A DNA stretch of 64,000 nt from the NCBI GenBank assembly GCA_964617815.1, contig CAZTXY010000001.1, forward strand, positions 67,120-131,119, in the 5' to 3' direction. A program made the position numbers and the translations under genes. Below the pieces are notes generated by a model. The model did no database searches. It saw nothing but the letters and a program-made list of their open reading frames with translations, and was not told where the DNA came from. Positions 39,710 through 59,525 of this stretch are shown here, one piece after another. Origin of the DNA: an uncultured Candidatus Saccharibacteria bacterium. Lineage in GTDB: Bacteria > Patescibacteriota > Doudnabacteria > UBA920. Each line of letters starts with the position of its first letter. Within the stretch, counting starts at the first letter, position 1.

Positions 39710-39751
39710 TACTAGGCACTAGGAACTAGTTACTAAATGCTACTGACTCAC
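39710..39751. repeat. tandem heptamer array NACTAGN x4-6
   Basis: Reads tactagg cactagg aactagt tactaaa tgctact gactcac. It overlaps the stop codon of the ORF ending at 39740. It is preceded by the palindromic hairpin aaaagccc/gggctttt. Confidence 0.65.
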
Positions 39752-40900
39752 ATCTATATAATATAACCCCTCATCCTGCATATTCTTAAAAAACAACTTA
39801 TCGTTAGTCAAATTCAAAAACATTTCACGTGCATCTACAGCCAATCCTGGGTCAATCTGTTTTTGCGTGGCAGTTTGTGAATCAATTTCGTAAATAATAT
39901 CTTCAGTTAAACCTTTATCTGGCAGGCCTCGCGTTGGTACTGCAGCATAAAGTTTTTGGCTATTGTTAGCCCAAACTACTTTATCAACCGTTGTAAAAAC
40001 CCCCAAATTTTTTGTCTCACCAGAAACTACGTCGCCAACCCAAAGCTGATACCTCTGGCCATCACTATCCCTGCGACCAAAAACAAACTTCTGACTGTCG
40101 GGTGCCCAAAGCACTCCAAAGTTATAACCTTCTTTAACTACAGACTTAAAAATTTGTCCATCCGAAGTTGTTAAGTTAATCGCGTTACGCGAATCTGTAC
40201 TTGCAAGCCGATAAAATAAAATTGTTCGGCCATCAGGAGAAATATTTAATTCATCATCATTCTCCCATATATCTGCTATCGTCGTATAATTAGTACTGTC
40301 GGGGTCAGCAATACTCAACGTAGACTTCCCCTCTTCATCTAACCAAATATAAATTATTCGATCCCCAGTCGGCATCCAATTCACCGAGGTAATTTGACTT
40401 GGCAAATCTGTAAAACCACCCTTTAGACTGTCGTACACGCTCCAGGTTCTACTTGTTCCACTTCCAGACTGAACCATAAAGTTATTACCAGAAAGTGGCC
40501 AAATAACTTTTGAGCCTCCAGACTTTTGAGGAATTACCAACTCTTTTTTATTTGCCAACAACACTACCCCATTGCCAATCTGCAAATCACTTTGAAATAA
40601 TTGCCCTTGCTTATTAAAATAAGTAATTCCGTTACCTTGATAAAACAATACCGGACTGACAACCTGGTCTTCAGTTAAGCGAATTGCCTTAACCCCAGTG
40701 TTAAAACCAGAACCAGAGTTATTAGGGATTTCATCTTGCGGAGGCTGATTTTGAGTGTCGTCTGTATTTGCCTGAGTATCACTAGGTGTATTTGCATTTT
40801 CTTCATCACCAGATTTACTGCGTTGAAAAATCAACACTGCTAGTGTAATAACTATAAGTAAAAATATGCCGCCTAAAATCGCAATCGCTTTTTTATTCAT
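39740..40900 (-). CDS. secreted beta-propeller protein (TolB/PD40-like repeats)
   Basis: N-terminal TM helix or signal peptide, a low-complexity linker, and repeated beta-strand-rich units with recurring W/Y-x-P-D-G motifs. Confidence 0.5.
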   Translation of the reverse strand: MNKKAIAILGGIFLLIVITLAVLIFQRSKSGDEENANTPSDTQANTDDTQNQPPQDEIPNNSGSGFNTGVKAIRLTEDQVVSPVLFYQGNGITYFNKQGQLFQSDLQIGNGVVLLANKKELVIPQKSGGSKVIWPLSGNNFMVQSGSGTSRTWSVYDSLKGGFTDLPSQITSVNWMPTGDRIIYIWLDEEGKSTLSIADPDSTNYTTIADIWENDDELNISPDGRTILFYRLASTDSRNAINLTTSDGQIFKSVVKEGYNFGVLWAPDSQKFVFGRRDSDGQRYQLWVGDVVSGETKNLGVFTTVDKVVWANNSQKLYAAVPTRGLPDKGLTEDIIYEIDSQTATQKQIDPGLAVDAREMFLNLTNDKLFFKNMQDEGLYYIDVSQ

Positions 40901-41116: not shown

Positions 41117-41932
41117 CTACTTTAAAGCCTCTTCAATCGCTTGTTTAAAAGTCGCGTAACTTTGGGCTCCCTCAAAACGTTTACCATTTACAAATACAGT
41201 TGGAGTTGCCTGCACACCATACTGAGTACCACCTTGTGTTTCAGTCTCCACATCTACTTTATGAATTCGGCTGTCAACACAAGTATTAAAGTCAGTAGCG
41301 TTTAAGCCGATGGCTTTGCCAAACTTTTTTAAATTAACTTGAGAAAAAGCTCCTTCATTTTCTCCACCTTGGTTGTCGTACAAATAATTATGAAATTCCC
41401 AAAACTTCCCTTGATCTTGCGCACACTTCGCCGCTTCTGCAGAAAAATGTGATTCTTCTCCCAAGAAAGCATAATCCTGATATGAAAATTTAACTTTACC
41501 AGTATCTACATAGTCAATTTTCAACTGTTTATAAACAGTATCGTATAATTTTTTGCAAAATGGACACTGGAAGTCTGCGTACTCCACAACTGTAACTTTT
41601 GCGTCCTTATTTCCCAAAATAGGCGCAGTGTCAGGAAGTTTCAAGTCAACTTGTTGTGGAACCACTGGTGCCTGCTGACCTGCCGGAACAACGCCAAGTT
41701 TAGTTTGACTTGTAAGAACAGTGTCTAATTTTGTAGAAATTGTTTTAGTGCTATACCAGACCACTCCACCAATAACCCCAGCTCCAATAATAATTGCCAA
41801 GAAGGCAAACAGGCCAATTATCAAAGCCACGCCAAATAACCTACGGTCCTGTGGTGTTAAATTTATTTTTTTTGCCGTAGCAATCTCTTCGGCAACTGGT
41901 TCACTAACTACATCATCATTTTCGTTTTGCAT
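41117..41932 (-). CDS. DsbA-like thiol:disulfide oxidoreductase (membrane-anchored)
   Basis: N-terminal TM helix and a thioredoxin fold with the CPFC active site. Confidence 0.8.
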   Translation of the reverse strand: MQNENDDVVSEPVAEEIATAKKINLTPQDRRLFGVALIIGLFAFLAIIIGAGVIGGVVWYSTKTISTKLDTVLTSQTKLGVVPAGQQAPVVPQQVDLKLPDTAPILGNKDAKVTVVEYADFQCPFCKKLYDTVYKQLKIDYVDTGKVKFSYQDYAFLGEESHFSAEAAKCAQDQGKFWEFHNYLYDNQGGENEGAFSQVNLKKFGKAIGLNATDFNTCVDSRIHKVDVETETQGGTQYGVQATPTVFVNGKRFEGAQSYATFKQAIEEALK

Positions 41933-41941
41933 AAATCTCCT

Positions 41942-42436
41942 TTATCGAATATTAATTGATTGTTCATTTTCAACTGCTTCTTCTGGAATTATATCATATG
42001 GAGGACAAAAACTAAGTCCATAATTTTTTTGATTATCTTGTTTAGAACTACCTGGTAAAGACAAGCCTAATGATACTGACAACTTACAAGCATCGGCTTT
42101 TTCAATATCAAGTCTTTTTAAAAAATCCACTTCAGCAAGTTTTCTATTTTCTAAAATAGGTTTAGCCATAATTAAAATGTAGAAAGTTTGGTTATCATCA
42201 TCAAAAAATGTAATATATTTATCATTTTCTTCTATAAATACATCGCCAGTCTCTTTTGAAAGAACCGAGGGCAATTGATGAAAATCATTTACAGCAACGA
42301 TTGCACCAGAAGATGTTTCTAATTTTAGTTTCGCAGTTTTTTCTGAATCCTTGCTAAGATAGTAAAAGACACTCGCTAAAACTAAGAGCAACAAAATTAT
42401 TATCCCTATTATTATAATTATGTTTTTTTTAGTCAT
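41942..42436 (-). CDS. small membrane-anchored protein in the T4SS-like cluster
   Basis: Start trimmed to MTKKNIIIIIG. One TM helix. Confidence 0.45.
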   Translation of the reverse strand: MTKKNIIIIIGIIILLLLVLASVFYYLSKDSEKTAKLKLETSSGAIVAVNDFHQLPSVLSKETGDVFIEENDKYITFFDDDNQTFYILIMAKPILENRKLAEVDFLKRLDIEKADACKLSVSLGLSLPGSSKQDNQKNYGLSFCPPYDIIPEEAVENEQSINIR

Positions 42437-42438
42437 AT

Positions 42439-44673
42439 TTATTGTCCGCACTTTCCAGAGGAATACTCTAAATAATAACGTGAACCAGTAACAACATAAT
42501 TGCGGGTTTGGCAATAAGTCGCGCTTGCCGCACAATCATTGGTCACATTACTTCCAGGTATACAGGCTGTTTGAGCACCGCTCGTAAAAGGACATTCCCA
42601 AAAGAATTTTCCTGGACAAGAATTACTTGATCTCCAAGGGCCTCCAGGACCTTCACCAGCATTGTAGGCAGCCAAAATATTCCCAATATTATTCCCAATA
42701 TGTGGTTGGTTTGGAATTTGTGATAAATATTTAGTACCACAAAAAATATTTGCTCGCGGGTCACAAGCATCACTAAACGAACCGCATCCTAATCCAGCCC
42801 ATGTTCCTGGTATAATTTGCATTAAACCTTTAGCCCCAGCGGAGCCGTATCCAGTCTGACAATTTCTCCAACCACTTTCTTTTTGAATTACTGCCCTAAT
42901 TAAACTAATATCAACACTATATGCGCGGGAAGCCTCAGCAACAATTCTATCTAAATCGCCATGATTACAAGTAGCAGTTCCCCCTAAATCACATCCGCCA
43001 CTACAAACACCACCGCCAGAACCCTGAACAATTACACACTGTCCTGATCCAGGACCAGGCTCAACACCGCCACCCCCACCTGTCCCGCCACCGCCGAAGA
43101 GTCCTCCGCCGCCAGCACTAAGCGATAACTTTCCACAAATTTCGCTGAGAGCTTGAAATTTTTCTAAACCGGGAACAAAATAAGTAGCGCCGGGAACGTA
43201 AGAAGTTATATTGCCTGCTGTAGAAATCCACTGCGCTCCAGGCAAATTACAAATGACAACAAAAAATAATGCAATCCAAAGAGCTATCCCTATTAAGTAT
43301 ATCGCATTTAGCACTCCTGTGATAAGCATTTTTATCCACCCCATTGGCTGACGAATCCCAATAATAGAACCAACTAAAAATGCATCTAAAACAATTAGCG
43401 GGAGAAAGCCGATGGGGATAAGCACAATAGAAAGTAAACACAAAATGCATATAGCAATCAACCACACCGCCATATCGTCAAGGCCAGACTTAATGACAGC
43501 CTTAGCACTTTCGATAGCAATATTAATAGCAACACCAACACCGGGTGCAACATTGGCGGCAGTAGCCGCTGTTTCAGCAACTGCAGCTGCGGCATCAATA
43601 GCAATATCGGCACCTAACTTAGCAGTCTCTGTAACTTTACCAAGACCACTTGCTTCTTCTATCTTATGTTTGCGATTTGCAATGTCAGCACCTGCATCAA
43701 TTACAGCGCCACCAATGGACAATGCCCCAGAAATATTCGCAGCTTTACTCCCAGCTTCTGCCCCCGCTACACCAGCTTTTATAGCATTACCAGTAATTCC
43801 AACTCCGGCTTTAGCAGCTGTTCCAGCCACTTCTGCAGCCTCAGCTCCACCACGAATAGCTCCTGCAGCCGCACGTTCGGCCCCGGCTCCCCGGCCCACA
43901 GTCCGAGCAGCTCCGCCTAAGCGAGCTGCATCTTCAACACCTTCTTCAGCTAACTCTTCGCCTGCTTTAACAGATGCTTTTCCCGGAGCACCGGGCTGCC
44001 CTTCAACAGTTTCTGATTTTGGAACGTCATCTGGAGACTCAGCCTTTGCTTTTGCTTGATCACGCTCTTTTACGCGCTTATCGTAATCTTTCTTGTGACG
44101 CTCTGCAAATTCAACCGGGCCTTCCTTTTCCTCTTTTTGTTGCCCTTGTTGTGCGTCGTTTCCTGTTTCTGCTTTTTTTTCTGAACCATCTCCTTCTTCA
44201 TCCGGACTTTTTAGCCGATCTTCAGTTAAACTTTGATCATTTTTTTGTGCTTGGTCGTCTAGAGCATTTTCTTTAGAAAAAGATTCATTGTTCGAAGAAG
44301 TTTGTTGTTGATTAATATTTTGATTATCATTGAAAGCTGATGCATTATCTCCGCCTGTATTGCTAGGTGTGGTCTTGCCACGAAAAGGACTAACTGTGCC
44401 AGGTTGTGAAGAGGACCCCCCATTTCCTTTTTGCTTAAAATCAACTTGAGTAACCTTAGTTTTTACTTTTGGATCATTAGAAACAACCGTGACAGGTTTA
44501 TCACTTTCTGCATCTCCACTTTTTTTTGGCACAACGCGCATAGCAGCGCGGGGCTGGCCATCACCCTGACTGCCTCCTTGAATAACAGAAAAGCCTGGCT
44601 GCTCTCCAGCCGATTGTTCTTCGTTATCTACATCGGAGTCGGTTGGCAGTCTTGCCAGGTTATCATTCGCCAT
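42439..44673 (-). CDS. VirB1-like lytic transglycosylase fusion protein
   Basis: Disordered N-terminal region, Ala-rich region, TM helices and a Gly-rich linker. The Cys-rich C-terminal domain carries SLT motifs QKESGW, GLMQI and AYNAG. Confidence 0.7.
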   Translation of the reverse strand: MANDNLARLPTDSDVDNEEQSAGEQPGFSVIQGGSQGDGQPRAAMRVVPKKSGDAESDKPVTVVSNDPKVKTKVTQVDFKQKGNGGSSSQPGTVSPFRGKTTPSNTGGDNASAFNDNQNINQQQTSSNNESFSKENALDDQAQKNDQSLTEDRLKSPDEEGDGSEKKAETGNDAQQGQQKEEKEGPVEFAERHKKDYDKRVKERDQAKAKAESPDDVPKSETVEGQPGAPGKASVKAGEELAEEGVEDAARLGGAARTVGRGAGAERAAAGAIRGGAEAAEVAGTAAKAGVGITGNAIKAGVAGAEAGSKAANISGALSIGGAVIDAGADIANRKHKIEEASGLGKVTETAKLGADIAIDAAAAVAETAATAANVAPGVGVAINIAIESAKAVIKSGLDDMAVWLIAICILCLLSIVLIPIGFLPLIVLDAFLVGSIIGIRQPMGWIKMLITGVLNAIYLIGIALWIALFFVVICNLPGAQWISTAGNITSYVPGATYFVPGLEKFQALSEICGKLSLSAGGGGLFGGGGTGGGGGVEPGPGSGQCVIVQGSGGGVCSGGCDLGGTATCNHGDLDRIVAEASRAYSVDISLIRAVIQKESGWRNCQTGYGSAGAKGLMQIIPGTWAGLGCGSFSDACDPRANIFCGTKYLSQIPNQPHIGNNIGNILAAYNAGEGPGGPWRSSNSCPGKFFWECPFTSGAQTACIPGSNVTNDCAASATYCQTRNYVVTGSRYYLEYSSGKCGQ

Positions 44674-44691: not shown

Positions 44692-46536
44692 TTATCCTGC
44701 AAACTGGTCTTTGCTTTCTTGAATTTCCAGTAACTGTTTCGGGTCTGTTGTAATTATTTGGTCTTCCATGTAGGAAGCGTAAATTTTGATAGCCGCATGC
44801 TTAAGTCCAGCAAAAAATATTCCTTCACCAACATCACTTTCAAGTAATAAATATTTCTCACCTTCAGTTAAAAAGAAAGTTTCAGCCACAATATCCACAG
44901 ACGCAGGACTTTGCTTAAGAAGTAACTGAATTGAAGAGTTTGTGACAATTGGTTTGCCGTACGGACTACTCATAAAATCTGCGACATCCTGAGTGATTGT
45001 TGTAAGACCAAGATAATATTTACGAGCGCGCTTGGCAATTCCATACACAAACCGAGCGGAGTCTTCGTGTTGCATAAGTATCCAAGCTTCATCAAGTACT
45101 AAGATACGGCGCTTCAGCTCGCTTCTAACCACATTCCAAATATGTCCTAAAATTAAATACATTGCCACTGGCCTTAGCTCGTCTTCTAAATCGCGAATTG
45201 AAAAAACTAAAAGCTGATTATTTAAAACAACGTTGCTTGGCTGGTTAAGAAGCCCAGCAAAAGTTCCTTCGGTAAACTTCGAGAGACGCTGAGCTAAACT
45301 TTCCGCACCCACCATATCACCTAAGACAGAAACTAAATCACTCATCACCGGATAGTCAGTGGTCTTAAGTTCCATGCCAGGAGTAATATCTTTGTTCGCA
45401 TACGCCTGCCAAATAGCTTTATCAAGTAGCGCTTCTTCAGTTGGATCTAGTTTACCTAAAACTAAATTCATCAGCCCCAAAAGTCCAATCACCGCACTGC
45501 GCATGGTGTCACTACTGTCTTCACCTTCAAGACCAATAGGTAAGTCAAAAGGATTAATGCGGTAGTCTGAGTTAAGCGAGATGCTTAAATATGTTCCACC
45601 AACCGCGTCGGCTAAATGTTTATATTCATTTTCAGGATCCACAATTAAAACTTCAATGCCAACCATCAAAGAACGCAGGACTTCTAATTTCACCGCATAC
45701 GATTTTCCGGCACCAGACTTAGCAAAAATTACAAAATTAGCATTTTCCATCTTAAACCGGTCAAATAAAATTAAACCGTTGTTGTGCCGGTTAATCCCGT
45801 AAAGTACTCCATCATTTCCAGTTAAATCCGAAGACACAAAAGGAAAAGTTGTCGAAAGGGGGCTGGTATTTAGATTATTTGCTACACCTAAATCGTCTAA
45901 TTGCATTGGCAATGTCGAGTTAAACCCAGGTTGCATTTGCATTAAGGCTCTCTTTGTAACCACGAGCTTCGCACCAAGTGCACTTTCAAGAATAGTTGAC
46001 TCTTTGTCGAGTTCGCGAAGATCTTTAGCATACAAAGTAAAATACAAAGCAAAACGAAAATACTTTTCAGTACCTTGCAATAAATTATCGCGCAATTCCT
46101 CGACGTCGTGATATCCTGTTTCCAGTAATGGATCACGTACCAAACCTTTTTCTCGGTTAATCATCATTTGTGAACCAATCTCTCCAACCTTCCCTTTCAA
46201 CTTTCTCAAGATTGTTCCAGAGTCAATTGGGTAAATAAACATTGAGACATCTAATGCCCCTTGAGAGTTGATAACAAACGACAACCAGTTCGAAGATAAA
46301 TAACGTGGGTAGGTTAAGACAAAAAAACTACGCGCAAATTTTCCATTCAACTCAAAATGGTCAGCCTCAAACTTCAAGCTTGCAGGCGCTATAAGGTCTT
46401 TAAGCGAAGTTAAACCTTGCTTATAGCTATCTTCAAGAGTACTAAGCTCTTTTCGAGTCGCCTCTTTACTCTTGCGCTCCTCAAGCTCATGCTTTTTCGC
46501 TTCTAATTGTTCTTCTGAAAGGTTAAACCAAGACAT
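44692..46536 (-). CDS. VirB4/TraC-like conjugal transfer ATPase, C-terminal ATPase part
   Basis: Walker A FAKSGAGKS and the Walker B region VLDEAW. Family-level resemblance to VirB4/TrsE. Confidence 0.8.
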   Translation of the reverse strand: MSWFNLSEEQLEAKKHELEERKSKEATRKELSTLEDSYKQGLTSLKDLIAPASLKFEADHFELNGKFARSFFVLTYPRYLSSNWLSFVINSQGALDVSMFIYPIDSGTILRKLKGKVGEIGSQMMINREKGLVRDPLLETGYHDVEELRDNLLQGTEKYFRFALYFTLYAKDLRELDKESTILESALGAKLVVTKRALMQMQPGFNSTLPMQLDDLGVANNLNTSPLSTTFPFVSSDLTGNDGVLYGINRHNNGLILFDRFKMENANFVIFAKSGAGKSYAVKLEVLRSLMVGIEVLIVDPENEYKHLADAVGGTYLSISLNSDYRINPFDLPIGLEGEDSSDTMRSAVIGLLGLMNLVLGKLDPTEEALLDKAIWQAYANKDITPGMELKTTDYPVMSDLVSVLGDMVGAESLAQRLSKFTEGTFAGLLNQPSNVVLNNQLLVFSIRDLEDELRPVAMYLILGHIWNVVRSELKRRILVLDEAWILMQHEDSARFVYGIAKRARKYYLGLTTITQDVADFMSSPYGKPIVTNSSIQLLLKQSPASVDIVAETFFLTEGEKYLLLESDVGEGIFFAGLKHAAIKIYASYMEDQIITTDPKQLLEIQESKDQFAG

Positions 46537-46540: not shown

Positions 46541-47245
46541 TTAACTCACTTCATTATTATTTCCAACAATCGCTATTTCTCCTAATTTTCCAGCATCGAT
46601 TAGCGGTCCCGACTCAAAATTATACGAATTATAAAATAGCTCAATCAGCTGTTCGGTATTTAGTCGCACTGCACGCAAACTCATCCCACCTAAGTTATTG
46701 GCAACACTACCAGCCCGTTCATCAAGTAAAGTTCTAACTTTTTCAAAATTTTCCAGCCTTTGGGCAATTTCCCGTGTTTTAGTACTTTTAAATAATCTTG
46801 CAAAAAATCCCGCTTTAGGAGGAAAAATATTTTGGGGCAATGAAATAATAATGTAAAAATTTTTATTCATTATATTTGCGCTCTCAACTAAATGGCTAAT
46901 AAACTCAATGTACTCACCAGTTTGAATGCGTAGCAATTCATTAGGCTGTTTTTCCATTAAGTGTTTTAAACTTTCGGTGTAGTCACCAATATCCATTCTT
47001 CGACTCTGCATTAAAACTTGGATTGGAAAATCCAACGAATTAATAAACCGCTGATATGCAACAATTAAAGCATCTTGTTCATCCTGACTCTTAAGATCAA
47101 AGTTTGTGCTTGAAACAGCCACCACGGCACGCAGGGTTCCGTCTTCCATAACAACACAGTCGTTGCGAATTTCATAAAATCGCAAAAATGATTGCGTTGG
47201 TTTTAAAATTGGTTTATTTGATTTTTTGTTTGAAAAAAGTCCCAT
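46541..47245 (-). CDS. VirB4-like N-terminal domain encoded as a separate ORF
   Basis: TAA-CTAT-ATG junction with the downstream ATPase ORF. The sequence pattern resembles the VirB4 N-domain of Gram-positive T4SS. Confidence 0.5.
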   Translation of the reverse strand: MGLFSNKKSNKPILKPTQSFLRFYEIRNDCVVMEDGTLRAVVAVSSTNFDLKSQDEQDALIVAYQRFINSLDFPIQVLMQSRRMDIGDYTESLKHLMEKQPNELLRIQTGEYIEFISHLVESANIMNKNFYIIISLPQNIFPPKAGFFARLFKSTKTREIAQRLENFEKVRTLLDERAGSVANNLGGMSLRAVRLNTEQLIELFYNSYNFESGPLIDAGKLGEIAIVGNNNEVS

Positions 47246-47253
47246 AAAATAAA

Positions 47254-47700
47254 TTAAAGTGGTTTATCTGCCAAAGCTGTCTCTGCAGCACCTTGCTGTG
47301 AAAGAGTGTAATTAAGTTTATGAAGCCTGACCGTTGCACTTTCCTGCTCTATTTTTGGAAGAGTAGTATCTGCTTGTTTTGTTTCTTGATCCATTAAAAT
47401 TTGGTGAGAAGAATCTAGCCCTTGTTTTGAAAAAATTAGAACTCTTGGGCTGACCATATACTGCAAATACGGGTAGAAGGTTGAATATAAAGGCCGACCG
47501 TTAATTTTTGCGAAAGTCAAAATTAACGCTGGCATTCCAAAAATTAAAAAGGCAAAGATGCCAACAATAATACTTTTTGTTCCTGTATAAAGCAAAAATG
47601 TCAGTGCGGCACCTGCACCTAAAATACCAAACTGCTTTAAAGTCAGTCCAGCTATGATTTTGTCTTCTACATCTGTAAATTGTGGGACGCTATATTGCAT
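47254..47700 (-). CDS. VirB3/PrgI-like small membrane protein
   Basis: 148 aa with two adjacent TM helices, sitting directly upstream of virB4. Confidence 0.4.
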   Translation of the reverse strand: MQYSVPQFTDVEDKIIAGLTLKQFGILGAGAALTFLLYTGTKSIIVGIFAFLIFGMPALILTFAKINGRPLYSTFYPYLQYMVSPRVLIFSKQGLDSSHQILMDQETKQADTTLPKIEQESATVRLHKLNYTLSQQGAAETALADKPL

Positions 47701-47744: not shown

Positions 47745-48707
47745 CTAATTTACTTGAGTAGCACGCAAGACATCAATAACTGCTTCAAAATCTGTTTTAG
47801 ACATCCCGCCTAAATTTGCTGTAGTATTTGGGTCTGAATGCATCAATGCTTGCTGGCCTGCTTTCATATACTCTTCATACAAAGGACTTTTTTCTAACAA
47901 AAATAAAACTGAAAAATATCCAAACTTTTTAACTAAGGACCTCATGGCTTCAAGTAAATCATCTTTCCCAAGTGACATCACTGTCGACCGATTTAAGTGC
48001 TCTACATCTTCTAAGGATTTAAGCTCGAGCGGAACTTCACTTGAAAAATTAGTTTTCGCCACTTCCATTTTCTGGGGCAACTCACTTAAAGAGCTATGCT
48101 TAAGCAAAGCGCTATAGTCAGTCTGCTTAGTGACAACTTTTTGCAAATGAACAGGGGTTATTGGCTTCAACCCTGCTTTCACCAAAGGTAGGCCTGCGGT
48201 AGGGTTAGGACGAGCATTTATTGATGCCAAAGGCGCTGTCGCAATACTAGGTCTTGCAGGAGAGTTAAGTTGATGATCAAAATCTTCTTGACCACTTTCC
48301 AATTCTTTTTCTGTCATGACCTGTGCCAAACTTTTTGCAAAAGCCCCTGTAGTTTGACCCTTGTCTTCGTGCCTAAATGTTTTCACCTGAGAACTTAAAG
48401 TTTGCTGAGGAGCACCCAAATTATTTGGTAAATTAGTTATATGATGAAGGCGGTTTGCAGTTAGAGGAGCAGAAGCCACTGGCTTAAGAGATGCTGAAAT
48501 TGGCCCAGGTTTTGGGCGCTGTTGTGTTTCTGGTAATTTTGCAATGACCACGCTAGAAGACGGCGCAGATAAAATAGTGACTAAGTCACTTAGCTGTTTG
48601 TCATTCATCACCGGCAAACTCTCAAGCCATGTTGTTTTTTCATCGGGCTGGAGTAATTTTGAAAAGGCAATAAGATTTTTAATTTTTTCTAGCGGTATAG
48701 AAGTCAT
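47745..48707 (-). CDS. hypothetical protein in the T4SS-like cluster (P/S/T-rich)
   Basis: 320 aa with no recognised domain. Confidence 0.4.
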   Translation of the reverse strand: MTSIPLEKIKNLIAFSKLLQPDEKTTWLESLPVMNDKQLSDLVTILSAPSSSVVIAKLPETQQRPKPGPISASLKPVASAPLTANRLHHITNLPNNLGAPQQTLSSQVKTFRHEDKGQTTGAFAKSLAQVMTEKELESGQEDFDHQLNSPARPSIATAPLASINARPNPTAGLPLVKAGLKPITPVHLQKVVTKQTDYSALLKHSSLSELPQKMEVAKTNFSSEVPLELKSLEDVEHLNRSTVMSLGKDDLLEAMRSLVKKFGYFSVLFLLEKSPLYEEYMKAGQQALMHSDPNTTANLGGMSKTDFEAVIDVLRATQVN

Positions 48708-48715: not shown

Positions 48716-50095
48716 TTATAAATCTTGAGACTCTTTACGTTTTTTTAAATCCTGTAACCGTTGCTCAATTTGCGAAGCTTCTAGCGCTCGCTTTTCTTGG
48801 CTTTGTTTTTTCATCTTTTCTATATCTACACTCCCTGCTCCACCACCAAGACCAACACCAGAAGATGGCACAACATTTCCAGCTAAGTCAATTGATTGCC
48901 TAGTAGTTCGATTATTAAGCAGGTCTTGCAAATTTACAGTTGGACCAAAAGGATTAGCCCGAGAAACTCCACTCATTGGCTCTGACTCTGTCTCTGGACT
49001 TATTTCTGCAACTGAAGCTTCAGCTTTTTGTTCATCTTGTTTTACTTCCGAAGCTGTATCTAAGTTTATAGAAGACAGTGGCTGAATATTTTGTAATAAC
49101 TCTGGGGGAAGACGAACTGGTTTTGGCGGTGTGGGAACTTGTTCCAAAATTGAGGCAGCTTTAGCATTTATTTTGGCTTTTGGTGGTTCTGGCGGAGTTG
49201 GTAATTCCACTGGACTAAACTCGGAGTCTGTCAAAGAAAAATCTTTGGCTTTTGAAGCGAGAAGCACATCTCTTGTGTCTTCGTACTTTTCAATTTCATC
49301 AGGATCAACTTCCGGCTTAAGTAGCCACTTATAAAATTTTATCAACTCAGTTAATAACTTTTTATCCTGTGGTGATAAACTCGCAACATTACTAGACTTT
49401 GTCATGTAGGCCGCTTCATCAAATACAGATGTAGCAGAGAGTGGTTTAGCAATAAAATCACCGTAATCTAAAATCCAATTTTTAATTACTGGTTGATACT
49501 GCTTACCGGAAATAACTAACGCTTGCGTTCCTAATTGTTCTTCATTTTGTTTAAGACTAGAGACAAGCGGTAGACCCCAATTTTCTTTATTCTCACCATA
49601 CTGATAATAATAAACCCGCTTAAATTCCATGCGCACATCGCCTGCATGCATTAAGTAGAGTAGGTTGTACCGAATTAAACCAGAGAGCTCCTCCAGTGGA
49701 AATTCTTTAAACAGCTTGACTTCAAACTCAAGCATGGCCTGCAGTAAAGAAAGATCTGCGCGAATTTTGCCCTTGTTTACAAGCGTCTTTACATCAACAA
49801 CCATTGGTACCAAATACTTCCCAAAGTCATAATTTGGATCATCAAGTCCTGACACTAACAACTCCGTTAAAAATTCTGGTTCATTGCCAATTGCCAATTC
49901 CGGTAACTCTACGGAGTCTTTCATAACTTGGAAGATATAGCGGTGCATTCGAGGAAGATCTACCTTATGAAGCCACATATACAAAAACTTTTTTGTATAT
50001 GTTCCCATAGAAAGAACATGCGAAACTAACCACTGTTTTTCAGTGTCACTAAAGCCTGATGCTGCTATAGCAGTTGTTAGTTCTTTATCATCCAT
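48716..50095 (-). CDS. hypothetical protein in the T4SS-like cluster
   Basis: 459 aa with a structured N-terminal half and a disordered Pro-rich C-terminus. Confidence 0.4.
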   Translation of the reverse strand: MDDKELTTAIAASGFSDTEKQWLVSHVLSMGTYTKKFLYMWLHKVDLPRMHRYIFQVMKDSVELPELAIGNEPEFLTELLVSGLDDPNYDFGKYLVPMVVDVKTLVNKGKIRADLSLLQAMLEFEVKLFKEFPLEELSGLIRYNLLYLMHAGDVRMEFKRVYYYQYGENKENWGLPLVSSLKQNEEQLGTQALVISGKQYQPVIKNWILDYGDFIAKPLSATSVFDEAAYMTKSSNVASLSPQDKKLLTELIKFYKWLLKPEVDPDEIEKYEDTRDVLLASKAKDFSLTDSEFSPVELPTPPEPPKAKINAKAASILEQVPTPPKPVRLPPELLQNIQPLSSINLDTASEVKQDEQKAEASVAEISPETESEPMSGVSRANPFGPTVNLQDLLNNRTTRQSIDLAGNVVPSSGVGLGGGAGSVDIEKMKKQSQEKRALEASQIEQRLQDLKKRKESQDL

Positions 50096-50098
50096 AGA

Positions 50099-53000
50099 CT
50101 ATAATCCTGCGATTACTTGATTAACCATATTATCTATCGTAGTTGTATTTATTGGGGCGCCAGAAATTGTGCGAGTCGCAAATTTCCCACCAAGCAAAGT
50201 TTCCAAATCACTTTTTAAGAGAGCTCTCTTTGCTGGATCCTTCAAATCCTCACCGGCGTGAGTCGAACGAACTGTATTAACACTTTTAATAATATCTTCT
50301 GTTAAATCTTCCTCTTCGGCTTTACTAATTGTTGGAATGCCTGCATCCCTAGTGTTTAACCGATCTGCAAAACTATTATGCACAAATGTCTTTGCAGAAT
50401 CGAGCATTGCATCTCGAGCTTTAGTATCTGCAACCCCACTAAATGCATCCGCTAACTCTGTATCATTAAAATGACTAATTTTACTCAAAACTCTATTAGC
50501 TTTATTCTGAACTTTGCCACGAACCTTACCCTCTAACCCATCATAGGCTATTCCAAATTGTTCATATTTATCATCCTTAGCTAACACACTTGCCACTGGA
50601 TCTTTAAGTTTTTCTGGAATTTTTGAATAACTATTACCACTGAAGTTTACCTTTGCATAACTCCCTGCAAAAGCTCTAAAATTCCTTTCAGCCTCATCCT
50701 TAACATCAGCTTCGGTAAAGTTTTTCCCTTTCTTTCTATACTCCTTAACCAATTTCTTTTGCATGCGATTGATAAATTCATTTCTCTTAGTTTCATCGCG
50801 TAATGCATCTCCAATTGCTTCCTGCTGATCTGCTCTAATATGAGTATTTTCCATTTCAGCTTTTCGTGCATCAGCAGTCAAGGCTAATTCAACAAGTCTG
50901 TCATTTGCCTCTACATCACCACTAGCCGTAGTAGCAACAAATGTAGATGCTGGGGTGTCTTCAGCAAGGGCCTTTGGAGACATTTTAGCTACAGCTTTAG
51001 CCTGATTTTTACTCATAAGAAATGCCGCTTCACCATTACGCCACTGTTCACGTTCTTCGGGAGTTTTAAGTTTTTTATACTCTTCAGCAAACTTTTCTTT
51101 GCGAATAGACTCAAGTTTTGCCTCAGAAACATTTGGGTCTCTTAGTCTCTCTGCATCTGCCTCTGCGTCAGCCGCTGTTTTTGCAGAATCAAACAAAGAT
51201 GCTCCACCAGCCGGTCCAACATTATCGCCAATATGTGCCAACCTTTTACTCTCATCATAACGAAATGCTCCTCTGATCCATTGCTCACCACTCTTACCAC
51301 CAATTTCATCAAGTTTTTTACCCAACACACCTGTTGAATAAGAATCCAACTGACCGTTATTAACCATGCCTTGCATAAACCCTCTCATGCCCTCGTCCGT
51401 AGCTGCAAATTTGAGTGCTTGAGCTAATTCTTTCATTCCACCTTGCTCAGCAATTACTTTAATAGTAGCCTGAAGTTTTGTGCGATCTTCCTGGTTTAAA
51501 TTCTTTTTCTCAGAAAGTTCTTTAACCCTTGCAATGTTTCGAGCAACATCCTCCTTTGTCGCCTCTTCTTGTTGTTTATCTACAGACTGTTGCATAAGCT
51601 CAGCGAGTTTGTATGTTTCATCACCTCGAGTAAATGGAAGTCGTGAAGCAACGTCTGTAGCCGCAGCACGAATTTTTTCTTGATCTTGTTTTTTTGCATT
51701 TGTCCAATTATCAAGAACTGCTTTTCCCGATGAAATTGGGTTAAACAAAGCTGAAATAGTGCGTCGTTTTCGTGAATCTGGGTCTACTGCTAAATACTCA
51801 GCGGTCTTTTTGCCTTTGTAGGTATTTGCTATTTCTCCACCCTTCTTAGCTACCCAAAGTGGACTTTTAAATCCTTTTTCTGCAAAGTCACCAATGGCTT
51901 TAGACCCAATCAAAGACAACGAGGAAGTGGCCTTCATTCCAATAATCAAAAATATCATCACAAGCAAGTTTGAGCCAATGGTAAATACAAAATCTGAAAT
52001 ATTTTGATACTGCGTCGCAAACCCAGGATTGCTTCCACCACTAACTAAATCTGCCATGATTGATTTGCTTAAACTAATATCAACTTCTGTACTCCCATTC
52101 GATGAAATAAACGCGGCGATGTTTAAAAAGAAAGCTAAAATAACCGCATAAAAAGCATACTTAAGAAACTTATCCCACCACATTTTTTGAAAACTTTTTG
52201 TGTTTGGCAAAACTCCTGCCACATAAGCCAAAGGTGACAGCATGAGTAAAATCCACAGCGCAATAATCCTAATAAACAACATTGCTGCTACGGCAACAAA
52301 CAACACGCCTGTTCCCAAAGCCATCGCCAAACTAACAAATGGTAAAAATAAATTTCCAACACCTTGTCCTGCTGTACCTGGTGTTATAATATTTTTATAA
52401 GACTTACTTAAATTATTTAATGACGGACCAGCAATAAGCACATAGGCCAGTCGGCGCACTGGCGTATATTCAAATGTCCCATCAGTTTTTGGGGGTGGGA
52501 GGAGCTGAGTCTGAACTGTATCGGCAAGACCCAAAATAGACTGCCCAATAACCAAACTAAAGTTAACTAGGACAGCTGCAATTATTAAGTTAACCAATAA
52601 CTGCTTATACTGGTATCCTTGCACACGAAAAATTGTGGCTAGTCCAATAACTAACAAAACAAGGATGAAGAAAATGTTACTAAGATTTCGCAGGACAATC
52701 CAGCCGGGCAAAATCACCGCAACAAAAGAGTCTTTGTAAGTTTGAATTCCAATTAATGCTTCTATCAGTGGAACGACTAAACTTAGTACCACAAAGGCTA
52801 CAAGACTAGATACAACCGCAATAACTGTACTAAAAATAGCTGTTAAAGTATCCAGTAAAGTATTAGCAATCACGCTCCCAAGACTTGGTCCTCCACTGGC
52901 AGGCGGAACAACTGGTGGAGTACCAACATCTTCTAAGGGTGTCGTTACAGGGTGATCATTACTTGTCTGGTCAATCTTTATTGTTACATTTTCACCAATT

Positions 53001-54118
53001 TTATGAGCCGTGCCTCCTTGCGGTGTAACAGTAGCGGAAAGAACCATTTCAGCTGGCGGAGAAGTGCTTCCAAGGGCTTGTTGAGTTGTAACTGTATTCC
53101 CAGCACGATATGCATAGGCCGGCTTACCGTCAACTTGAATGAGAACTGCTTTATTGACTGAGTAAGAGATTGTAATGCCAGGAGTAAAGGTAAGCGCAAA
53201 AACAACATTATCTAAATTTTGACATTCAGTTGATGCATCACCTGGTAGTATCACTTCTGCCCTAATTATAAATTGTTCAGTAAGCCCTACCACAGCTTTA
53301 TTTGTTTGAACCTGAGAACTTGCAATATTTGCAAAACAGTCTGTGCCCGTAGCACCACCCTTAGGCAAAATAAAAACATTATACGCTTTTGTGACTGTTT
53401 GATTTGTAGAATCTTTTAACGTTACTGTGAAATCTACTTTCTTATTTACATCACCTTCTGGTGGAATTCCACCAACTTTACCAGTGCTATCAATTCCAAG
53501 CCAAAAAGGTAAGGCGGGTTCTAAAGTCCAAGTATAAGGTGTCGTTCCTCCAGCTCCTGATAGCTGAGTACTATATTCCTTACCTACCTCGGCCTCAGGC
53601 AAGCGCTCTGCATCAGGTTGAATTGCTAAACCTTCTGCTACTGAAACAATAACTGTTTCTGGCAAGACTCTCGTAAAACCAAACTCTTTTACTGTCACTT
53701 TTAAGGTATAAGCGCCTATGGCATTAATTGACATATTTGCCTCACCACTAAATCCTTGCGGACTTGTATTCCTGTATACAGAGCCAGAAGTCGCCTCTGC
53801 AATGTTTGTAGGCTGATTAGTACCTTGTTCTAAAAATTTATAACTAAAACTAATATTAGATGCGGCATTTGCTGTACAGCCTGGTGGTGATACGTTTGGT
53901 TCCACAAATACGTCGGCCTTAAAAGATTGGCCTTTACTTACTTTTACTGGCCCCTTAGAACCATTAATAAAAATATTGCTTGTTTTAAATGGAGGCGTTG
54001 TAACTGAACACAATGCTAAAGCCAATTTGGGTGGAACAAGAAAAGTGCCTAATCCAATAAGCAAAAAGGCTAGAAAGGAAAGGGCTGATTTTGTTTTAAA
54101 TTTTTGTTTCAAAAGCAC
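50099..54118 (-). CDS. giant VirB6-like polytopic membrane protein (1339 aa)
   Basis: Signal peptide, N-terminal Ig-like beta-rich domains, a central block of 6 or more TM helices, and a long charged coiled-coil C-terminus. Confidence 0.55.
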   Translation of the reverse strand: MLLKQKFKTKSALSFLAFLLIGLGTFLVPPKLALALCSVTTPPFKTSNIFINGSKGPVKVSKGQSFKADVFVEPNVSPPGCTANAASNISFSYKFLEQGTNQPTNIAEATSGSVYRNTSPQGFSGEANMSINAIGAYTLKVTVKEFGFTRVLPETVIVSVAEGLAIQPDAERLPEAEVGKEYSTQLSGAGGTTPYTWTLEPALPFWLGIDSTGKVGGIPPEGDVNKKVDFTVTLKDSTNQTVTKAYNVFILPKGGATGTDCFANIASSQVQTNKAVVGLTEQFIIRAEVILPGDASTECQNLDNVVFALTFTPGITISYSVNKAVLIQVDGKPAYAYRAGNTVTTQQALGSTSPPAEMVLSATVTPQGGTAHKIGENVTIKIDQTSNDHPVTTPLEDVGTPPVVPPASGGPSLGSVIANTLLDTLTAIFSTVIAVVSSLVAFVVLSLVVPLIEALIGIQTYKDSFVAVILPGWIVLRNLSNIFFILVLLVIGLATIFRVQGYQYKQLLVNLIIAAVLVNFSLVIGQSILGLADTVQTQLLPPPKTDGTFEYTPVRRLAYVLIAGPSLNNLSKSYKNIITPGTAGQGVGNLFLPFVSLAMALGTGVLFVAVAAMLFIRIIALWILLMLSPLAYVAGVLPNTKSFQKMWWDKFLKYAFYAVILAFFLNIAAFISSNGSTEVDISLSKSIMADLVSGGSNPGFATQYQNISDFVFTIGSNLLVMIFLIIGMKATSSLSLIGSKAIGDFAEKGFKSPLWVAKKGGEIANTYKGKKTAEYLAVDPDSRKRRTISALFNPISSGKAVLDNWTNAKKQDQEKIRAAATDVASRLPFTRGDETYKLAELMQQSVDKQQEEATKEDVARNIARVKELSEKKNLNQEDRTKLQATIKVIAEQGGMKELAQALKFAATDEGMRGFMQGMVNNGQLDSYSTGVLGKKLDEIGGKSGEQWIRGAFRYDESKRLAHIGDNVGPAGGASLFDSAKTAADAEADAERLRDPNVSEAKLESIRKEKFAEEYKKLKTPEEREQWRNGEAAFLMSKNQAKAVAKMSPKALAEDTPASTFVATTASGDVEANDRLVELALTADARKAEMENTHIRADQQEAIGDALRDETKRNEFINRMQKKLVKEYRKKGKNFTEADVKDEAERNFRAFAGSYAKVNFSGNSYSKIPEKLKDPVASVLAKDDKYEQFGIAYDGLEGKVRGKVQNKANRVLSKISHFNDTELADAFSGVADTKARDAMLDSAKTFVHNSFADRLNTRDAGIPTISKAEEEDLTEDIIKSVNTVRSTHAGEDLKDPAKRALLKSDLETLLGGKFATRTISGAPINTTTIDNMVNQVIAGL

Positions 54119-54259
54119 AGAATTTATAGCTAAAAAGTCTTAAAATTAGACCAAAAGTTAGCTTTATTATATCACAACAACTCCATTTTTTCCAAATTTT
54201 AACAAAAAAGCACCGAGAAGTCTCTCGCGTGCCAAAAAACTCAAATATTGCAAAGCACT

Positions 54260-54550
54260 TTAGCCTCGTGGGCGAATAAATTGCGTTTTAATTTTTGGAA
54301 CAATCTCAGTTTGTTGAGACTCCGGAATTTTGTTTTCAATAACTGGTTTGGAAATAGGTTTAGTAACTGCAGGTTGAATTGTCGTAGTATTTGACGAAGC
54401 CGACGCCCCCACACCCTGCAATTTTGCTTTACCACCTGGTAAGCTAAAACCATTTTGCACCATTACAAACAAAACCAAAATAGCCGCACTCCCCCCAATT
54501 GCTAAAAGATGGGTAAGCCCAAAACCAAATTTTGTGTTACTACTCATCAT
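54260..54550 (-). CDS. small membrane protein (candidate pilin-like subunit)
   Basis: 96 aa with one hydrophobic helix (KFGFGLTHLLAIGGSAAILVLFVMV). It is the first gene of the cluster on the minus strand. Confidence 0.35.
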   Translation of the reverse strand: MMSSNTKFGFGLTHLLAIGGSAAILVLFVMVQNGFSLPGGKAKLQGVGASASSNTTTIQPAVTKPISKPVIENKIPESQQTEIVPKIKTQFIRPRG

Positions 54551-54587: not shown

Positions 54588-55454
54588 CTATAGTATAGCA
54601 TATTTATCGTCTTTCTGCAAGCTTTTACTCGCAACAAGGTTTTTATATAACGCTATCCACTGCTCCAGCGACAATTCTTGCGGACGCGCCTGGGGCTTAA
54701 CTTCAATTGTGTCTAGTAATTTTAAAACAACATCTTTTTCAAGTCCATAATTATTCGTTAAAGTATTATGAATTTGTTTTCTTTTTCCAGCAAAACAACT
54801 GCGCACAAGTCTAAAAAACTTTTTACTGTCCAAATCTTTAATTTTACTCTCCCCTTGCAAATGAATTTGCAAAATACTACTGGTAACTTTCGGTACCGGA
54901 AAAAAATCTCGCGCAGGAACAGTTTGCAAGATTTTAGCACTGCCATACAACTGAATAGACAAACTTAATAAATTGTTTCTCCCCGCTAATGCTACAGCAT
55001 TTTGAGCAACTTCTTTTTGAATCAGTATTGTTATCGTAATAGGCTTATGCTTTGCTAAAAGCAAAAGTTGGATAATTTTTCCTGTAATATAGTAAGGAAT
55101 ATTAGCCACCACATGATAGCGCGGGTAATCGGCCAAGGCATCCTCAAAATTAAAACGGAGTGCATCTGCAATTTCATATTGAAAATTTTTGTGCGCTTTT
55201 TTTAGGCCTTTTAAAATTGACAAAAAACGTTTATCTTTTTCAATAGCCAAAACAAATGCCGACGTATCCAGTAACCTACTCGTCAAATTTCCAATCCCGG
55301 GACCAATCTCCAAAACTGCATCCCCTGACTGCCTTGGCACGCTGTCAACCATATCTTGTAGTACAAAATCGTTAAGCAAAAAATTCTGCCCAAAAGTTTC
55401 ATTTGGTTTAAGCTGATAGCGTTTTAATAGGTCTTTTAATTGCTCAATGGTCAT
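54588..55454 (-). CDS. rsmA: 16S rRNA (adenine1518-N6/adenine1519-N6)-dimethyltransferase
   Basis: SAM-binding motif LEIGPGIGNLT. KsgA family. Confidence 0.9.
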   Translation of the reverse strand: MTIEQLKDLLKRYQLKPNETFGQNFLLNDFVLQDMVDSVPRQSGDAVLEIGPGIGNLTSRLLDTSAFVLAIEKDKRFLSILKGLKKAHKNFQYEIADALRFNFEDALADYPRYHVVANIPYYITGKIIQLLLLAKHKPITITILIQKEVAQNAVALAGRNNLLSLSIQLYGSAKILQTVPARDFFPVPKVTSSILQIHLQGESKIKDLDSKKFFRLVRSCFAGKRKQIHNTLTNNYGLEKDVVLKLLDTIEVKPQARPQELSLEQWIALYKNLVASKSLQKDDKYAIL

Positions 55455-58119: not shown

Positions 58120-59376
58120 ATGTTAGGTAAAGGAGACTGTATCTTACAAGTTAGTCACTGGGTATCTGTATTCTCGCGCAAGGCCAAGACCGCTTGGTTT
58201 GTCACCCAATATTTTGCCAAAAAATTTCTGGTGGTTTTAAACTCAAGACTTCCAGGTATCACTAAACATTACGCTAACAACTTTCCAGCAGTCCATCTTC
58301 GAATGGATCGTTGGTTTTATTTTTCTAACTTTTCCAGTGAACTCGTTTTTATAGCGCTTGTAGTTTTTGTTTCTATATTTAGCATTTGGAATTTTCAAAT
58401 AAGCTCCGCTTCAACTGATCAAAGCTTAGCAATGAAACTACTGTCTTATCACAGCGATCTAAACCCAAAACTCTACGCTCAAAGTAACACTATTAAAACA
58501 GTTGTTGTGGGCAATAATAGGTTTGTTTCTGAAGCCTATGCGGAAGAAAGCCTCACTCCACAAATCTCTGAAGAAACAACTGTCAACTTAGTCGAAGAAG
58601 AAGAGGACGTAATTGTAGACAATGCCATCACCAATCCAAATGGTTCTGATGCCCAAAAACTTCTCCACAAACAAATTCAAATTTATACTACGCAGCCTGG
58701 AGACACATTAGCTAAAATTTCCAAACAATTTGGCATAAGCATGAACACTATTATGTGGGCCAATGGTTTATCTGGTAGCACTATTAAACCTGGTTGGTAT
58801 TTGAAAATTTTGCCTTCAAATGGAATTTTAATACAAGCAGGACCAAACACAAGTTTAGCCGAAGTTGCTAAAAAGTATAACGGCGACCTTGCCACTCTTA
58901 TTGCTTACAATGGTCTTGAAGATGAAGAAGACTTACGCCAAGGAGATTTAATTATGTGTGTAAGTTGTAGCATACCCGCCCCACCAACCGCAGCCAAGCC
59001 TGCAGCCAAAAAAACTATCACCCCATCAATTCCTACCAACCTTGCCAAAGCTTCTGGTAATAACTTTGCTAAAGGACAATGCACAGACTATGTTGCTCGA
59101 GTTTTCTCTACTATGGGCAAAGAAATCCCTTGGCGCGGCAACGCCGGCAAGTGGGATAAAACCGCTCCCAAATTTGGCGCTTTGGTTAATCATCTCGCAA
59201 GTGTAGGGGCAATTATCCAGACAACTGACTCACCATATGGCCATGTAGGAGTAGTCGAATCAGTGAGCGGTAGCACCGTGACCTTCAGCGAATGGAATTA
59301 CGCCGGTAAATACAAAAAAACAGTCAGGACACTCTCTCTGAGCGATAAGAGCATTCGAAACTATATACATTACTAG
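58120..59376 (+). CDS. LysM-domain CHAP-family peptidoglycan hydrolase (start codon uncertain)
   Basis: LysM repeats (YTTQPGDTLAKISKQFG) and a CHAP domain (GQCTDYV ... PYGHVGVV). The N-terminal TM helix is around MDRWFYF. Confidence 0.7.
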   Translation: MLGKGDCILQVSHWVSVFSRKAKTAWFVTQYFAKKFLVVLNSRLPGITKHYANNFPAVHLRMDRWFYFSNFSSELVFIALVVFVSIFSIWNFQISSASTDQSLAMKLLSYHSDLNPKLYAQSNTIKTVVVGNNRFVSEAYAEESLTPQISEETTVNLVEEEEDVIVDNAITNPNGSDAQKLLHKQIQIYTTQPGDTLAKISKQFGISMNTIMWANGLSGSTIKPGWYLKILPSNGILIQAGPNTSLAEVAKKYNGDLATLIAYNGLEDEEDLRQGDLIMCVSCSIPAPPTAAKPAAKKTITPSIPTNLAKASGNNFAKGQCTDYVARVFSTMGKEIPWRGNAGKWDKTAPKFGALVNHLASVGAIIQTTDSPYGHVGVVESVSGSTVTFSEWNYAGKYKKTVRTLSLSDKSIRNYIHY

Positions 59377-59383
59377 ATATAAC

Positions 59384-59418
59384 AGTACTTGGTACCTAGT
59401 ACTGAGTACTTAGCACTA
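59384..59418. repeat. tandem heptamer array AGTACTN x5 (left arm)
   Basis: Reads agtactt ggtacct agtactg agtactt agcacta. Confidence 0.7.
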
Positions 59419-59447
59419 ACTTATATAATACTAAACTTTAACAAAAA

Positions 59448-59484
59448 TCCCTGCGCCAAAGGCGCAGGGATTTTTGTTATTTTT
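59448..59484 (+). terminator. Rho-independent terminator after the CHAP hydrolase gene
   Basis: Stem tccctgcgcc/ggcgcaggga followed by tttttgttattttt. Confidence 0.8.
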
Positions 59485-59487
59485 AAA

Positions 59488-59523
59488 CTAAGTACCAAGT
59501 ACTATTTACTAAGTACTTGAGCT
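59488..59523. repeat. tandem heptamer array (right arm, inverted relative to 59384-59418)
   Basis: ctaagtaccaagtactatttactaagtact is approximately the reverse complement of the left-arm array. Confidence 0.7.
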
Positions 59524-59525
59524 CA

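Follow-up and report, generated by a model that had tools for sequence, protein, structure and literature searches.

An extended VirB6-like protein with two hypervariable appendages heads a chromosomal type IV secretion operon in a Doudnabacteria-like genome

The DNA analyzed here, referred to as the window, comprises 64,000 nucleotides (positions 67,120 to 131,119 of contig CAZTXY010000001.1, assembly GCA_964617815.1), and all feature coordinates are window positions. Its minus strand carries an extended VirB6-like gene (50099..54118), which is the first gene of a type IV secretion system (T4SS) operon. The open reading frame (ORF) is uninterrupted, with zero internal stops, and from its GTG start encodes 1339 amino acids (aa). 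A 148-kb NCBI contig has the identical protein on record with a length of 1337 aa; an exact look-up of protein P0001 returned no entry on record. The shorter product corresponds to an alternative TTG start two codons 3' of the GTG (54112), which agrees with the MKQKFKT start of the closest homolog and is probably where the database copy of VirB6 begins. The protein opens with a putative signal peptide (aa 1-35; 54014..54118, minus strand), which is followed by three compositional zones: a polar stretch of about 380 aa with four cysteines, corresponding to a predicted exported N-terminal ectodomain (aa 36-415; 52874..54013, minus strand); six hydrophobic segments, corresponding to a VirB6/TrbL core (aa 416-760; 51839..52873, minus strand); and a charged, hydrophilic C-terminal tail of 579 aa (aa 761-1339; 50102..51838, minus strand) that is predicted to be helical, is hypervariable, and is probably cytoplasmic. 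About 50 nt upstream of virB6 there is a sigma-70-like promoter motif (TTGGAA-18-TATAAT with an extended TG; 54166..54195, minus strand), which is preceded by a terminator-like hairpin (54214-54227); both are consensus matches only, and such matches were no commoner than in shuffled sequence. The DNA from this motif through the signal peptide was 92.7% identical to that of locus L081, which belongs to the closest relative.

The original prediction had left room for this ORF to be a product of missed stops that join several genes. The protein is unusually long and its three regions differ strongly in composition, as might be expected of an annotation or assembly artefact, whether from missed stops or from misassembly. 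Against this, the frame is single and intact, the identical protein was recorded from the 148-kb contig, and the same three-part single ORF was found in L001, L002, L003, L006, P0002, and P0063, which come from independent assemblies of several samples and clades. A fusion or misassembly origin was therefore rejected, and we give it practically no credence.

The genes downstream of virB6 lie on the same strand in the order g459, g320, prgI/virB3, trsD-like, virB4, SLT hydrolase, g197, and dsbA. g459 (48716..50095) starts 4 bp past the virB6 stop and encodes a 459-aa protein of no known family, the N-terminal ~90 aa of which (49826-50095) co-vary with the VirB6 tail, while g320 (47745..48707) encodes a 320-aa protein, also of no known family, that is conserved in the closest loci. 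Both proteins are predicted to be soluble, and g459 has neither a signal peptide nor a transmembrane (TM) segment. The 148-aa PrgI/VirB3-like protein (47254..47700) was recognized by PF12666 (42.7 bits), and the 614-aa VirB4-family ATPase (44692..46536) was assigned to the CD1110/MPF-FATA type by NF045971 (326.2 bits against a cutoff of 325). Between them, g234 (46541..47245) encodes a 234-aa TrsD/TraC-like protein that resembles the N-terminal domain of VirB4, for which PF26593 is recorded on the identical protein and weak TrsD and VirB4 N-terminal matches were obtained. Past virB4 lie the genes for a 744-aa VirB1-like membrane protein with a C-terminal SLT lytic transglycosylase domain (42439..44673), the exported C-terminal part of which is hypervariable; for g197 (41942..42436), a small, membrane-anchored exported protein that is likewise hypervariable; and for a DsbA-like thiol:disulfide oxidoreductase with an N-terminal anchor (41117..41932). 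With its listed TTG start (42535), g197 has a 97-bp overlap with the SLT gene. A likelier start, giving about 164 aa, is the ATG at 42436 (MTKKNIIII...), which stands directly after the SLT stop and fits the N terminus of the homolog in L087.

The prgI, trsD-like, and virB4 genes are 2.4 to 7.6 kb downstream of virB6, and the order virB6-prgI-trsD-like-virB4 was kept in 51 of 80 related candidate phyla radiation (CPR) loci. With PrgI/VirB3, a TrsD-like protein, VirB4, and a lytic transglycosylase in one operon, the T4SS setting that had been proposed for the gene was borne out. No coupling protein (T4CP) or relaxase was found among all ORFs of at least 445 aa in the window. A plasmid or integrative and conjugative element was considered as the origin of the locus and rejected, as the scanned ORFs included no relaxase, T4CP, or integrase and housekeeping genes are present on both sides (KsgA, UvrD, RecO, IleRS, RadA, RecG, ClpB, GatAB, MreBC, PBP2, and others). 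The locus thus has the composition by which chromosomal T4SSs of Patescibacteria are identified, namely, VirB4 with TrsD, PrgI/VirB3, and VirB6 nearby, no nearby relaxase or T4CP, and a chromosomal context. All 80 related loci, which were taken from species-representative genomes, belong to metagenome-assembled genomes of Patescibacteria, and the nearest of them (VirB4 77-79% identical) are labeled Doudnabacteria; judged by these relatives, the organism is an ultra-small Patescibacteria/CPR bacterium of a Doudnabacteria-like clade.

No VirB5 was recognized among the T4SS genes in the window, and no VirB2-like pilin cluster was seen beside the locus, without a systematic search for one. Just upstream of virB6, g96 (54260-54550) encodes a 96-aa single-TM protein, 78% identical in L081 and with no family match; it is unlike a VirB2 pilin in having only one hydrophobic segment. 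In L081 an extra 179-aa gene with a PaaX_M-like match (L081 422-961) lies between the g96 homolog and virB6 and is absent from the window. The ksgA/rsmA rRNA methyltransferase gene (54588-55454) was found upstream of virB6 in 27 of the 80 related CPR loci; that this arrangement is retained in many CPR lineages argues for an ancient position of the T4SS in the chromosome.

The central block of the protein had been described as TM helices typical of VirB6/TrbL, and sequence, profile, and fold agreed on this point. Six hydrophobic segments were located at aa ~415-738, both in the query and in the average of 40 family sequences, in keeping with the at least five hydrophobic helices of a VirB6 core. 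Residues G472, W473, N481, N519, F520, and W622 were invariant and R477 and R617 nearly so. The Pfam family TrbL (PF04610) matched aa 512-671 with 22.5 to 23.2 bits (E = 7e-5 to 1e-4), and the same region was matched in all five long homologs, among which P0005, a Doudnabacteria protein named "type IV secretion system protein" at NCBI, passed the cutoff with 28.5 bits. Precomputed annotation lists PF19590 (TrbL_3) both for the identical protein and for P0002, and the core also gave a weak NCBIfam match to the CD3337/EF1877 mobilome membrane protein (21 bits against a cutoff of 120). Two points weigh against the assignment: the TrbL score of the query is below the Pfam cutoff of 25.9, and PF19590 was not reproduced by the Pfam scan performed in this analysis. 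Searching PDB with a core profile built from seven homologs produced a single match, TrwI, the VirB6 of plasmid R388 (E = 2e-3). In an AlphaFold2 (AF2) model based on a 40-homolog alignment, aa 410-770 were confidently predicted as helical, with a predicted local distance difference test score (pLDDT) of ~90, and a Foldseek search with this core model returned TrwI/VirB6 chains as its top seven matches (E = 7e-4; probability 1.0; TM-score on the target 0.44-0.56), after which there was a sharp drop. Taken together, the TrbL matches, the profile, and the fold indicate that aa 416-760 are a divergent VirB6/TrbL homolog.

The putative signal peptide, too, was supported by its sequence features, which include a K-rich start (aa 4-10), a hydrophobic stretch (aa 9-39, with the hydrophobic region proper at aa 12-30), and an A33-L34-A35 motif as the predicted cleavage site (ALA|L). 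It was 65% identical to that of P0002 and its features recurred in other homologs, while the ensuing ectodomain was not conserved. The ectodomain contains two cysteine pairs, C37/C81 and C261/C299, and a Pro-rich linker (aa ~385-415) forms its end. Of the roughly 400 aa that had been described as Ig-like, one part was verified: in a separate scan of the N-terminal region, a He_PIG domain (PF05345; aa 173-247; 53378..53602, minus strand) scored 34.7 bits, above the cutoff of 24, and BLAST matched many proteins with He_PIG repeats. The P0002 allele lacks this domain. With proteins that carry He_PIG domains in tandem, the BLAST alignments started as early as aa ~80-135, a hint of a second Ig repeat in degenerate form. 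For the remainder the description could not be upheld, with no family match in Pfam, no sequence match in PDB, and a pLDDT of <50 for aa 27-408 in the AF2 model, which is unreliable in this region because the homologs in the 40-sequence alignment do not align there. That most of the ectodomain is without a confident fold counts against the overall reading of the protein proposed below. Domains 1 and 3 of the ectodomain look alike by eye and were considered as repeats of one disulfide-bonded domain; BLASTP found no similarity between them, and the idea was dropped.

No Pfam match was found in the ectodomains of seven relatives, and ectodomains of related clades were mutually unrelated. Among the 80 loci, an N-terminal extension of >250 aa was restricted to the window's own clade (L001-L006 and L026), with most homologs having 5 to 95 aa at this position. 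The large ectodomains had even cysteine counts throughout (4, 10, 4, 6, 4, 8, and 14), and N-extensions overall contained 1.9% Cys. The signal peptide, the even cysteine counts, the operon-encoded DsbA, and the Pro-rich linker together support a disulfide-bonded module displayed outside the cell, and this module may act as an adhesin, as had been supposed.

The C-terminal region had been anticipated as about 600 aa of highly charged, helix-prone sequence, and this description was accurate: the tail is 579 aa long, contains 33% charged residues and no Cys, and was modeled by AF2 as all-helical, at a pLDDT of ~50. The longest modeled helix was, however, no more than 26 aa, and the coiled coil that had been predicted for the tail was not supported. 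With a crude, home-made heptad score, used in place of COILS or Marcoil, the tail reached a maximum of 0.52 against a shuffle mean of 0.51, with 38% of shuffles scoring equally well or better, and only 0.5% of its windows were above threshold compared with 36% in a tropomyosin control. Since the heptad score was no better than that of shuffled sequences while tropomyosin scored strongly, and since the helices are short, the coiled-coil label was rejected.

Self-BLAST revealed no internal repeats in the tail, Pfam and NCBIfam gave no match to it, a profile search of PDB gave only chance matches (flavodoxin, E ~1), and no Foldseek match to the low-confidence tail model reached E <= 0.001. When 1.84 billion representatives were searched exhaustively with HMMER, two relatives were recovered, and both are tails of VirB6 proteins: one is a P0002-type fragment, and the other belongs to P0063, which has 1363 aa and is built on the same three-part plan. 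A colinear alignment of the three tail alleles contains 40 invariant positions, so that the tail is a real but very divergent domain. Long tails were moreover present in all 74 complete CPR homologs. They extend 224 to 1079 aa past the core, the median share of charged residues is 32%, and only 5 Cys occurred in 40,735 tail residues. The long tail is therefore a family-wide CPR feature and not peculiar to this gene.

Several features suggest that the N terminus lies outside and the C terminus inside the cell. The segment after the last hydrophobic helix was net positive in 96% of homologs (median, +5), and the family-averaged loop charges alternated as expected for an inside C terminus. The tail resembles VirB4, g459, and g320 in having 0 Cys, in contrast to the 4 to 18 Cys of the exported parts of the locus, and the g459 N terminus with which it co-varies belongs to a protein that has neither a signal peptide nor a TM segment. 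The positive post-core segment, the Cys-poor tails, and the Cys-rich N-extensions together favor an N-out/C-in arrangement, and we think it quite probable that the tail is cytoplasmic. These observations count against the alternative of a tail that lies outside the cell, or passes through the channel into the host, and is driven to hypervariability by contact with host factors. Such a tail would resemble the extended VirB6 paralogs of Anaplasmataceae, which are surface-exposed. It would also recall the contact that has been proposed between TraG of a donor and TraS or Eex of a recipient. In favor of this alternative, the cytoplasmic determinants of TraG are thought to contact a recipient protein (PMC11493245). 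Moreover, six hydrophobic segments are the wrong parity for N-out/C-in if each crosses the membrane once, and an N-out start would then place the C terminus outside. The solved structure of TrwI has just two membrane-crossing helices, its other helices forming a periplasmic dome (PMC9259494), by analogy with which the present tail could lie outside. Apart from the tail, the hypervariable parts of the locus (the N-ectodomain, the SLT C terminus, and g197) are all exported, which would likewise favor an exposed tail, and so would the finding of only two detectable relatives in the HMMER search. Counting of hydrophobic segments was discarded as a guide to topology, its parity being inconsistent and the TrwI structure showing it to be unreliable for VirB6. 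Given the wrong parity and the two crossing helices of TrwI, we can only infer the topology, and on balance an exposed tail seems unlikely.

Variation within the locus was assessed by comparing the window with its closest relative (L081/L086, encoding P0002; three ENA samples) and with a third lineage (L087/L095), all of which are fully syntenic. VirB4 (exact match in L095) and the TrsD-like protein g234 were 100% identical to those of the window, RadA was 99% and PrgI 96-99% identical, and the VirB6 core was 93% identical. The VirB6 N-ectodomain and tail, in contrast, were only 16% and 26% identical, respectively. Backbone DNA was 85-92% identical, and blastn detected no similarity in three stretches: the ectodomain (54040-52871), the tail together with the first ~90 codons of g459 (51867-49828), and g197 together with the exported part of the SLT protein (43062-41925). 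By the Nei-Gojobori method, the nonsynonymous (dN) and synonymous (dS) divergence of VirB4 was 0.003 and 0.71, respectively, and the dN/dS of the VirB6 core between lineages was 0.07. For the ectodomain and tail cassettes, dN was ~0.93 and dS 1.6-2.0, both saturated, with a dN/dS of 0.48-0.57. Because the cassette dS is itself saturated, replacement by old, maintained alleles fits better than in-place positive selection alone. Within the operon, dS against L081 was uneven, being ~0.1 in prgI and the TrsD-like gene (46541-47700) and ~0.7 in the adjacent virB4 (44692-46536) and the virB6 core, which suggests a recent gene-conversion tract.

Two further observations bear on the history of these modules. 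First, P0063 was 24% identical to the window in the tail and 42% in the core, compared with 26% and 93% for P0002; as the P0063 tail is about as close as that of P0002 despite the distant core, the history of the tail is decoupled from that of the core. Second, g459 of L087 (L087 3871-5250) was found to be a mosaic. Its residues 1-90 are identical to L086, alongside the P0002-type tail that the two share, whereas residues 91-360 are 97-100% identical to the window and 83-90% identical to L086. This mosaic is direct evidence of recombination at the module boundary (49826-50095) and indicates that the VirB6 tail and the g459 N terminus travel together. As a point on the other side, the hypervariability is seen in only two VirB6 alleles in three lineages: a metagenome scan for further alleles yielded only the same relative and one distant short contig, and exact look-ups of g234 and VirB4 yielded one further full locus (L087/L095) and otherwise short contigs.

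The extensions might instead be weakly constrained appendages that drift fast under relaxed constraint with occasional recombination and have no role in specificity, the N-terminal region serving as a spacer across the wall or S-layer and the tail as a disordered-like charged linker. The poor models of both regions, the lack of any family or fold match for the tail and most of the ectodomain, the mutually unrelated ectodomains of related clades, and a cassette dN/dS below 1 would all be compatible with drift. Neutral drift at the locus-wide dS of ~0.7 cannot, however, produce 16-26% identity beside a 93% identical core, and the saturated cassette dS points to old alleles that have been maintained. 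Furthermore, a long, charged, Cys-excluding tail was kept in all 74 complete homologs, the three tail alleles are colinear with their invariant positions, and the paired cysteines and recognized Ig-like domain are indicative of folded ectodomains. Drift without function is thus very unlikely in our estimation.

A second hypervariable block was observed at 41925-43062, comprising g197 and the SLT protein beyond aa 500, including its catalytic domain. The exported SLT domain and g197 exist as three alleles, 14-28% identical, in the three lineages with identical VirB4. The whole SLT protein contains 18 Cys. Its L087 counterpart is 689 aa long and has no SLT match on record, and the variability of this block may reflect different host cell walls.

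We consider it probable that the ORF encodes the VirB6, that is, the channel or stalk-base subunit, of a chromosomal Patescibacteria T4SS of Gram-positive (MPF-FATA-like) type and that both of its appendages are exchangeable specificity modules, the latter because they are hypervariable between lineages with an identical ATPase. In diderm T4SSs VirB5 is found at the outer face, and monoderm systems normally use a separate adhesin. In the proposed mechanism, the N-terminal ~380 aa would be exported by Sec, folded with disulfide bonds, a DsbA being encoded in the operon, and held outside on the Pro-rich linker, which would place them on the outer side of the VirB6 oligomer, in the position that VirB5 has in diderm systems. 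There the ectodomain, including the He_PIG domain, would probably act as a built-in host-cell recognition or attachment module, standing in for VirB5 or for a separate adhesin. The tail would be located in the cytoplasm beside VirB4 and the TrsD-like protein, where it would probably dock the soluble g459 and so provide a platform for selecting substrates or partners, in a system that lacks a nearby coupling protein. On this reading, recombination has reassorted both appendages.

The near constancy of the core between close relatives, while both ends differ almost completely, suggests that the variable N-domain and tail determine partner specificity. A more specific proposal, which we regard as less likely than not, is that the ectodomain is a host-recognition device built into the channel subunit, in place of the separate adhesin or VirB5 tip that the published survey reports as not found in these systems, and that the tail and the g459 N terminus form an allele-matched lock and key, which either selects cargo or itself enters the host, with recombination reshuffling these determinants on an invariant motor. 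If true, such reassortment would explain how these obligate epibionts change hosts or follow them. No T4SS before that of the Patescibacteria had been shown to be essential for growth of its carrier, and PMC10633639 and PMC12857230 present its cargo and its means of host recognition as unknown. The locus offers a concrete handle on these questions and on the hydrophilic domains of extended VirB6 proteins: the motor (VirB4, the TrsD-like protein, VirB3, and the VirB6 core) is nearly frozen, while close lineages differ by swaps of three modules: the VirB6 ectodomain, the VirB6 tail with the g459 N terminus, and g197 with the exported hydrolase domain. This pattern identifies candidate parts for host specificity and substrate selection.

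Elsewhere in the window, several predicted surface or wall-acting proteins are encoded near the locus (at 58120-61331, 14057-15115, and 39740-40900): a LysM+CHAP hydrolase, a 601-aa DUF11-repeat protein, a BNR/sortilin-like protein, and a PD40 beta-propeller protein, the last of which is conserved at the end of the T4SS cluster. The genes for PurC (SAICAR synthetase) and PurE (AIR carboxylase) at 25843-27295 lie in a stretch with 52% GC, compared with ~40% in other parts. As genes for purine synthesis are unusual in Patescibacteria, they may have been acquired horizontally.

When compared with known systems, the window VirB6 belongs to the same VirB6/TrbL family as TrwI of R388 (PDB 7o3v/8rt9) and VirB6 of A. 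tumefaciens. It is 16-18% identical to TrwI and four times longer than that 342-aa protein, to which it adds the exported ~380-aa N-terminal domain and the 579-aa C-terminal tail, and it functions in a monoderm system, unlike TrwI. The tail places it in the class of extended VirB6 proteins recognized by Alvarez-Martinez and Christie, as described in PMC12857230, which are defined by a VirB6 core with large central or C-proximal hydrophilic domains, the function of which is stated there to be unknown. Rickettsia RvhB6a-e (674-1154 aa; PMC2653234) and the TraG proteins of F-type and SXT elements share with it a core of at least five hydrophobic helices and a large C-proximal hydrophilic domain; the window tail has no sequence similarity to any of these. 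The specificity groups of TraG are set by its cytoplasmic residues in combination with a neighboring gene, traS or eex (PMC11493245), which parallels the co-variation of the window tail with the g459 N terminus. The two cases differ in that g459 is soluble whereas exclusion proteins are membrane proteins, and in that the window system is chromosomal and nonconjugative. A signal-peptide-led N-ectodomain is a feature of the window protein that the published definition, which refers to central or C-proximal domains, does not mention.

Among monoderm VirB6-like proteins (PrgH of pCF10, CD3337/EF1877, and Orf15 of Tn916), the pCF10 gene is upstream of prgI and virB4, as in the window (PMC12857230). 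These proteins come from relaxase-carrying conjugative elements, and the CD3337/EF1877 match of the window core remained far below its cutoff. In the two papers on Patescibacteria T4SSs, PMC10633639 and PMC12102498, VirB6 was detected by profile, and its domain architecture is not described in the passages searched. Within the searched passages of these papers, the signal-peptide-led VirB6 ectodomain, the universal Cys-free charged CPR tails, and the cassette hypervariability of both ends appear undescribed.

The closest overall likeness is to the chromosomal T4SSs of Patescibacteria, which, according to PMC10633639 and PMC12102498, share with the window the gene set of VirB6, PrgI/VirB3, TrsD, VirB4, and a wall hydrolase. 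Like the window locus, those described in PMC12102498 are relaxase-less, have no nearby coupling protein, and are related to MPF-FATA, and in class ABY1 they are chromosomal and located beside recG and radA, the neighborhood also seen here. That survey (Quinonero-Coronel et al. 2025) reports that no PrgB-type adhesins were found in Patescibacteria and describes the Patescibacteria/CPR as a group known for epibiotic life, with which the cell-attachment or epibiotic lifestyle guessed in the original prediction is in accord. In Southlakia epibionticum, virB6 is essential for epibiotic growth, as stated by Wang et al. 2023 (PMC10633639).

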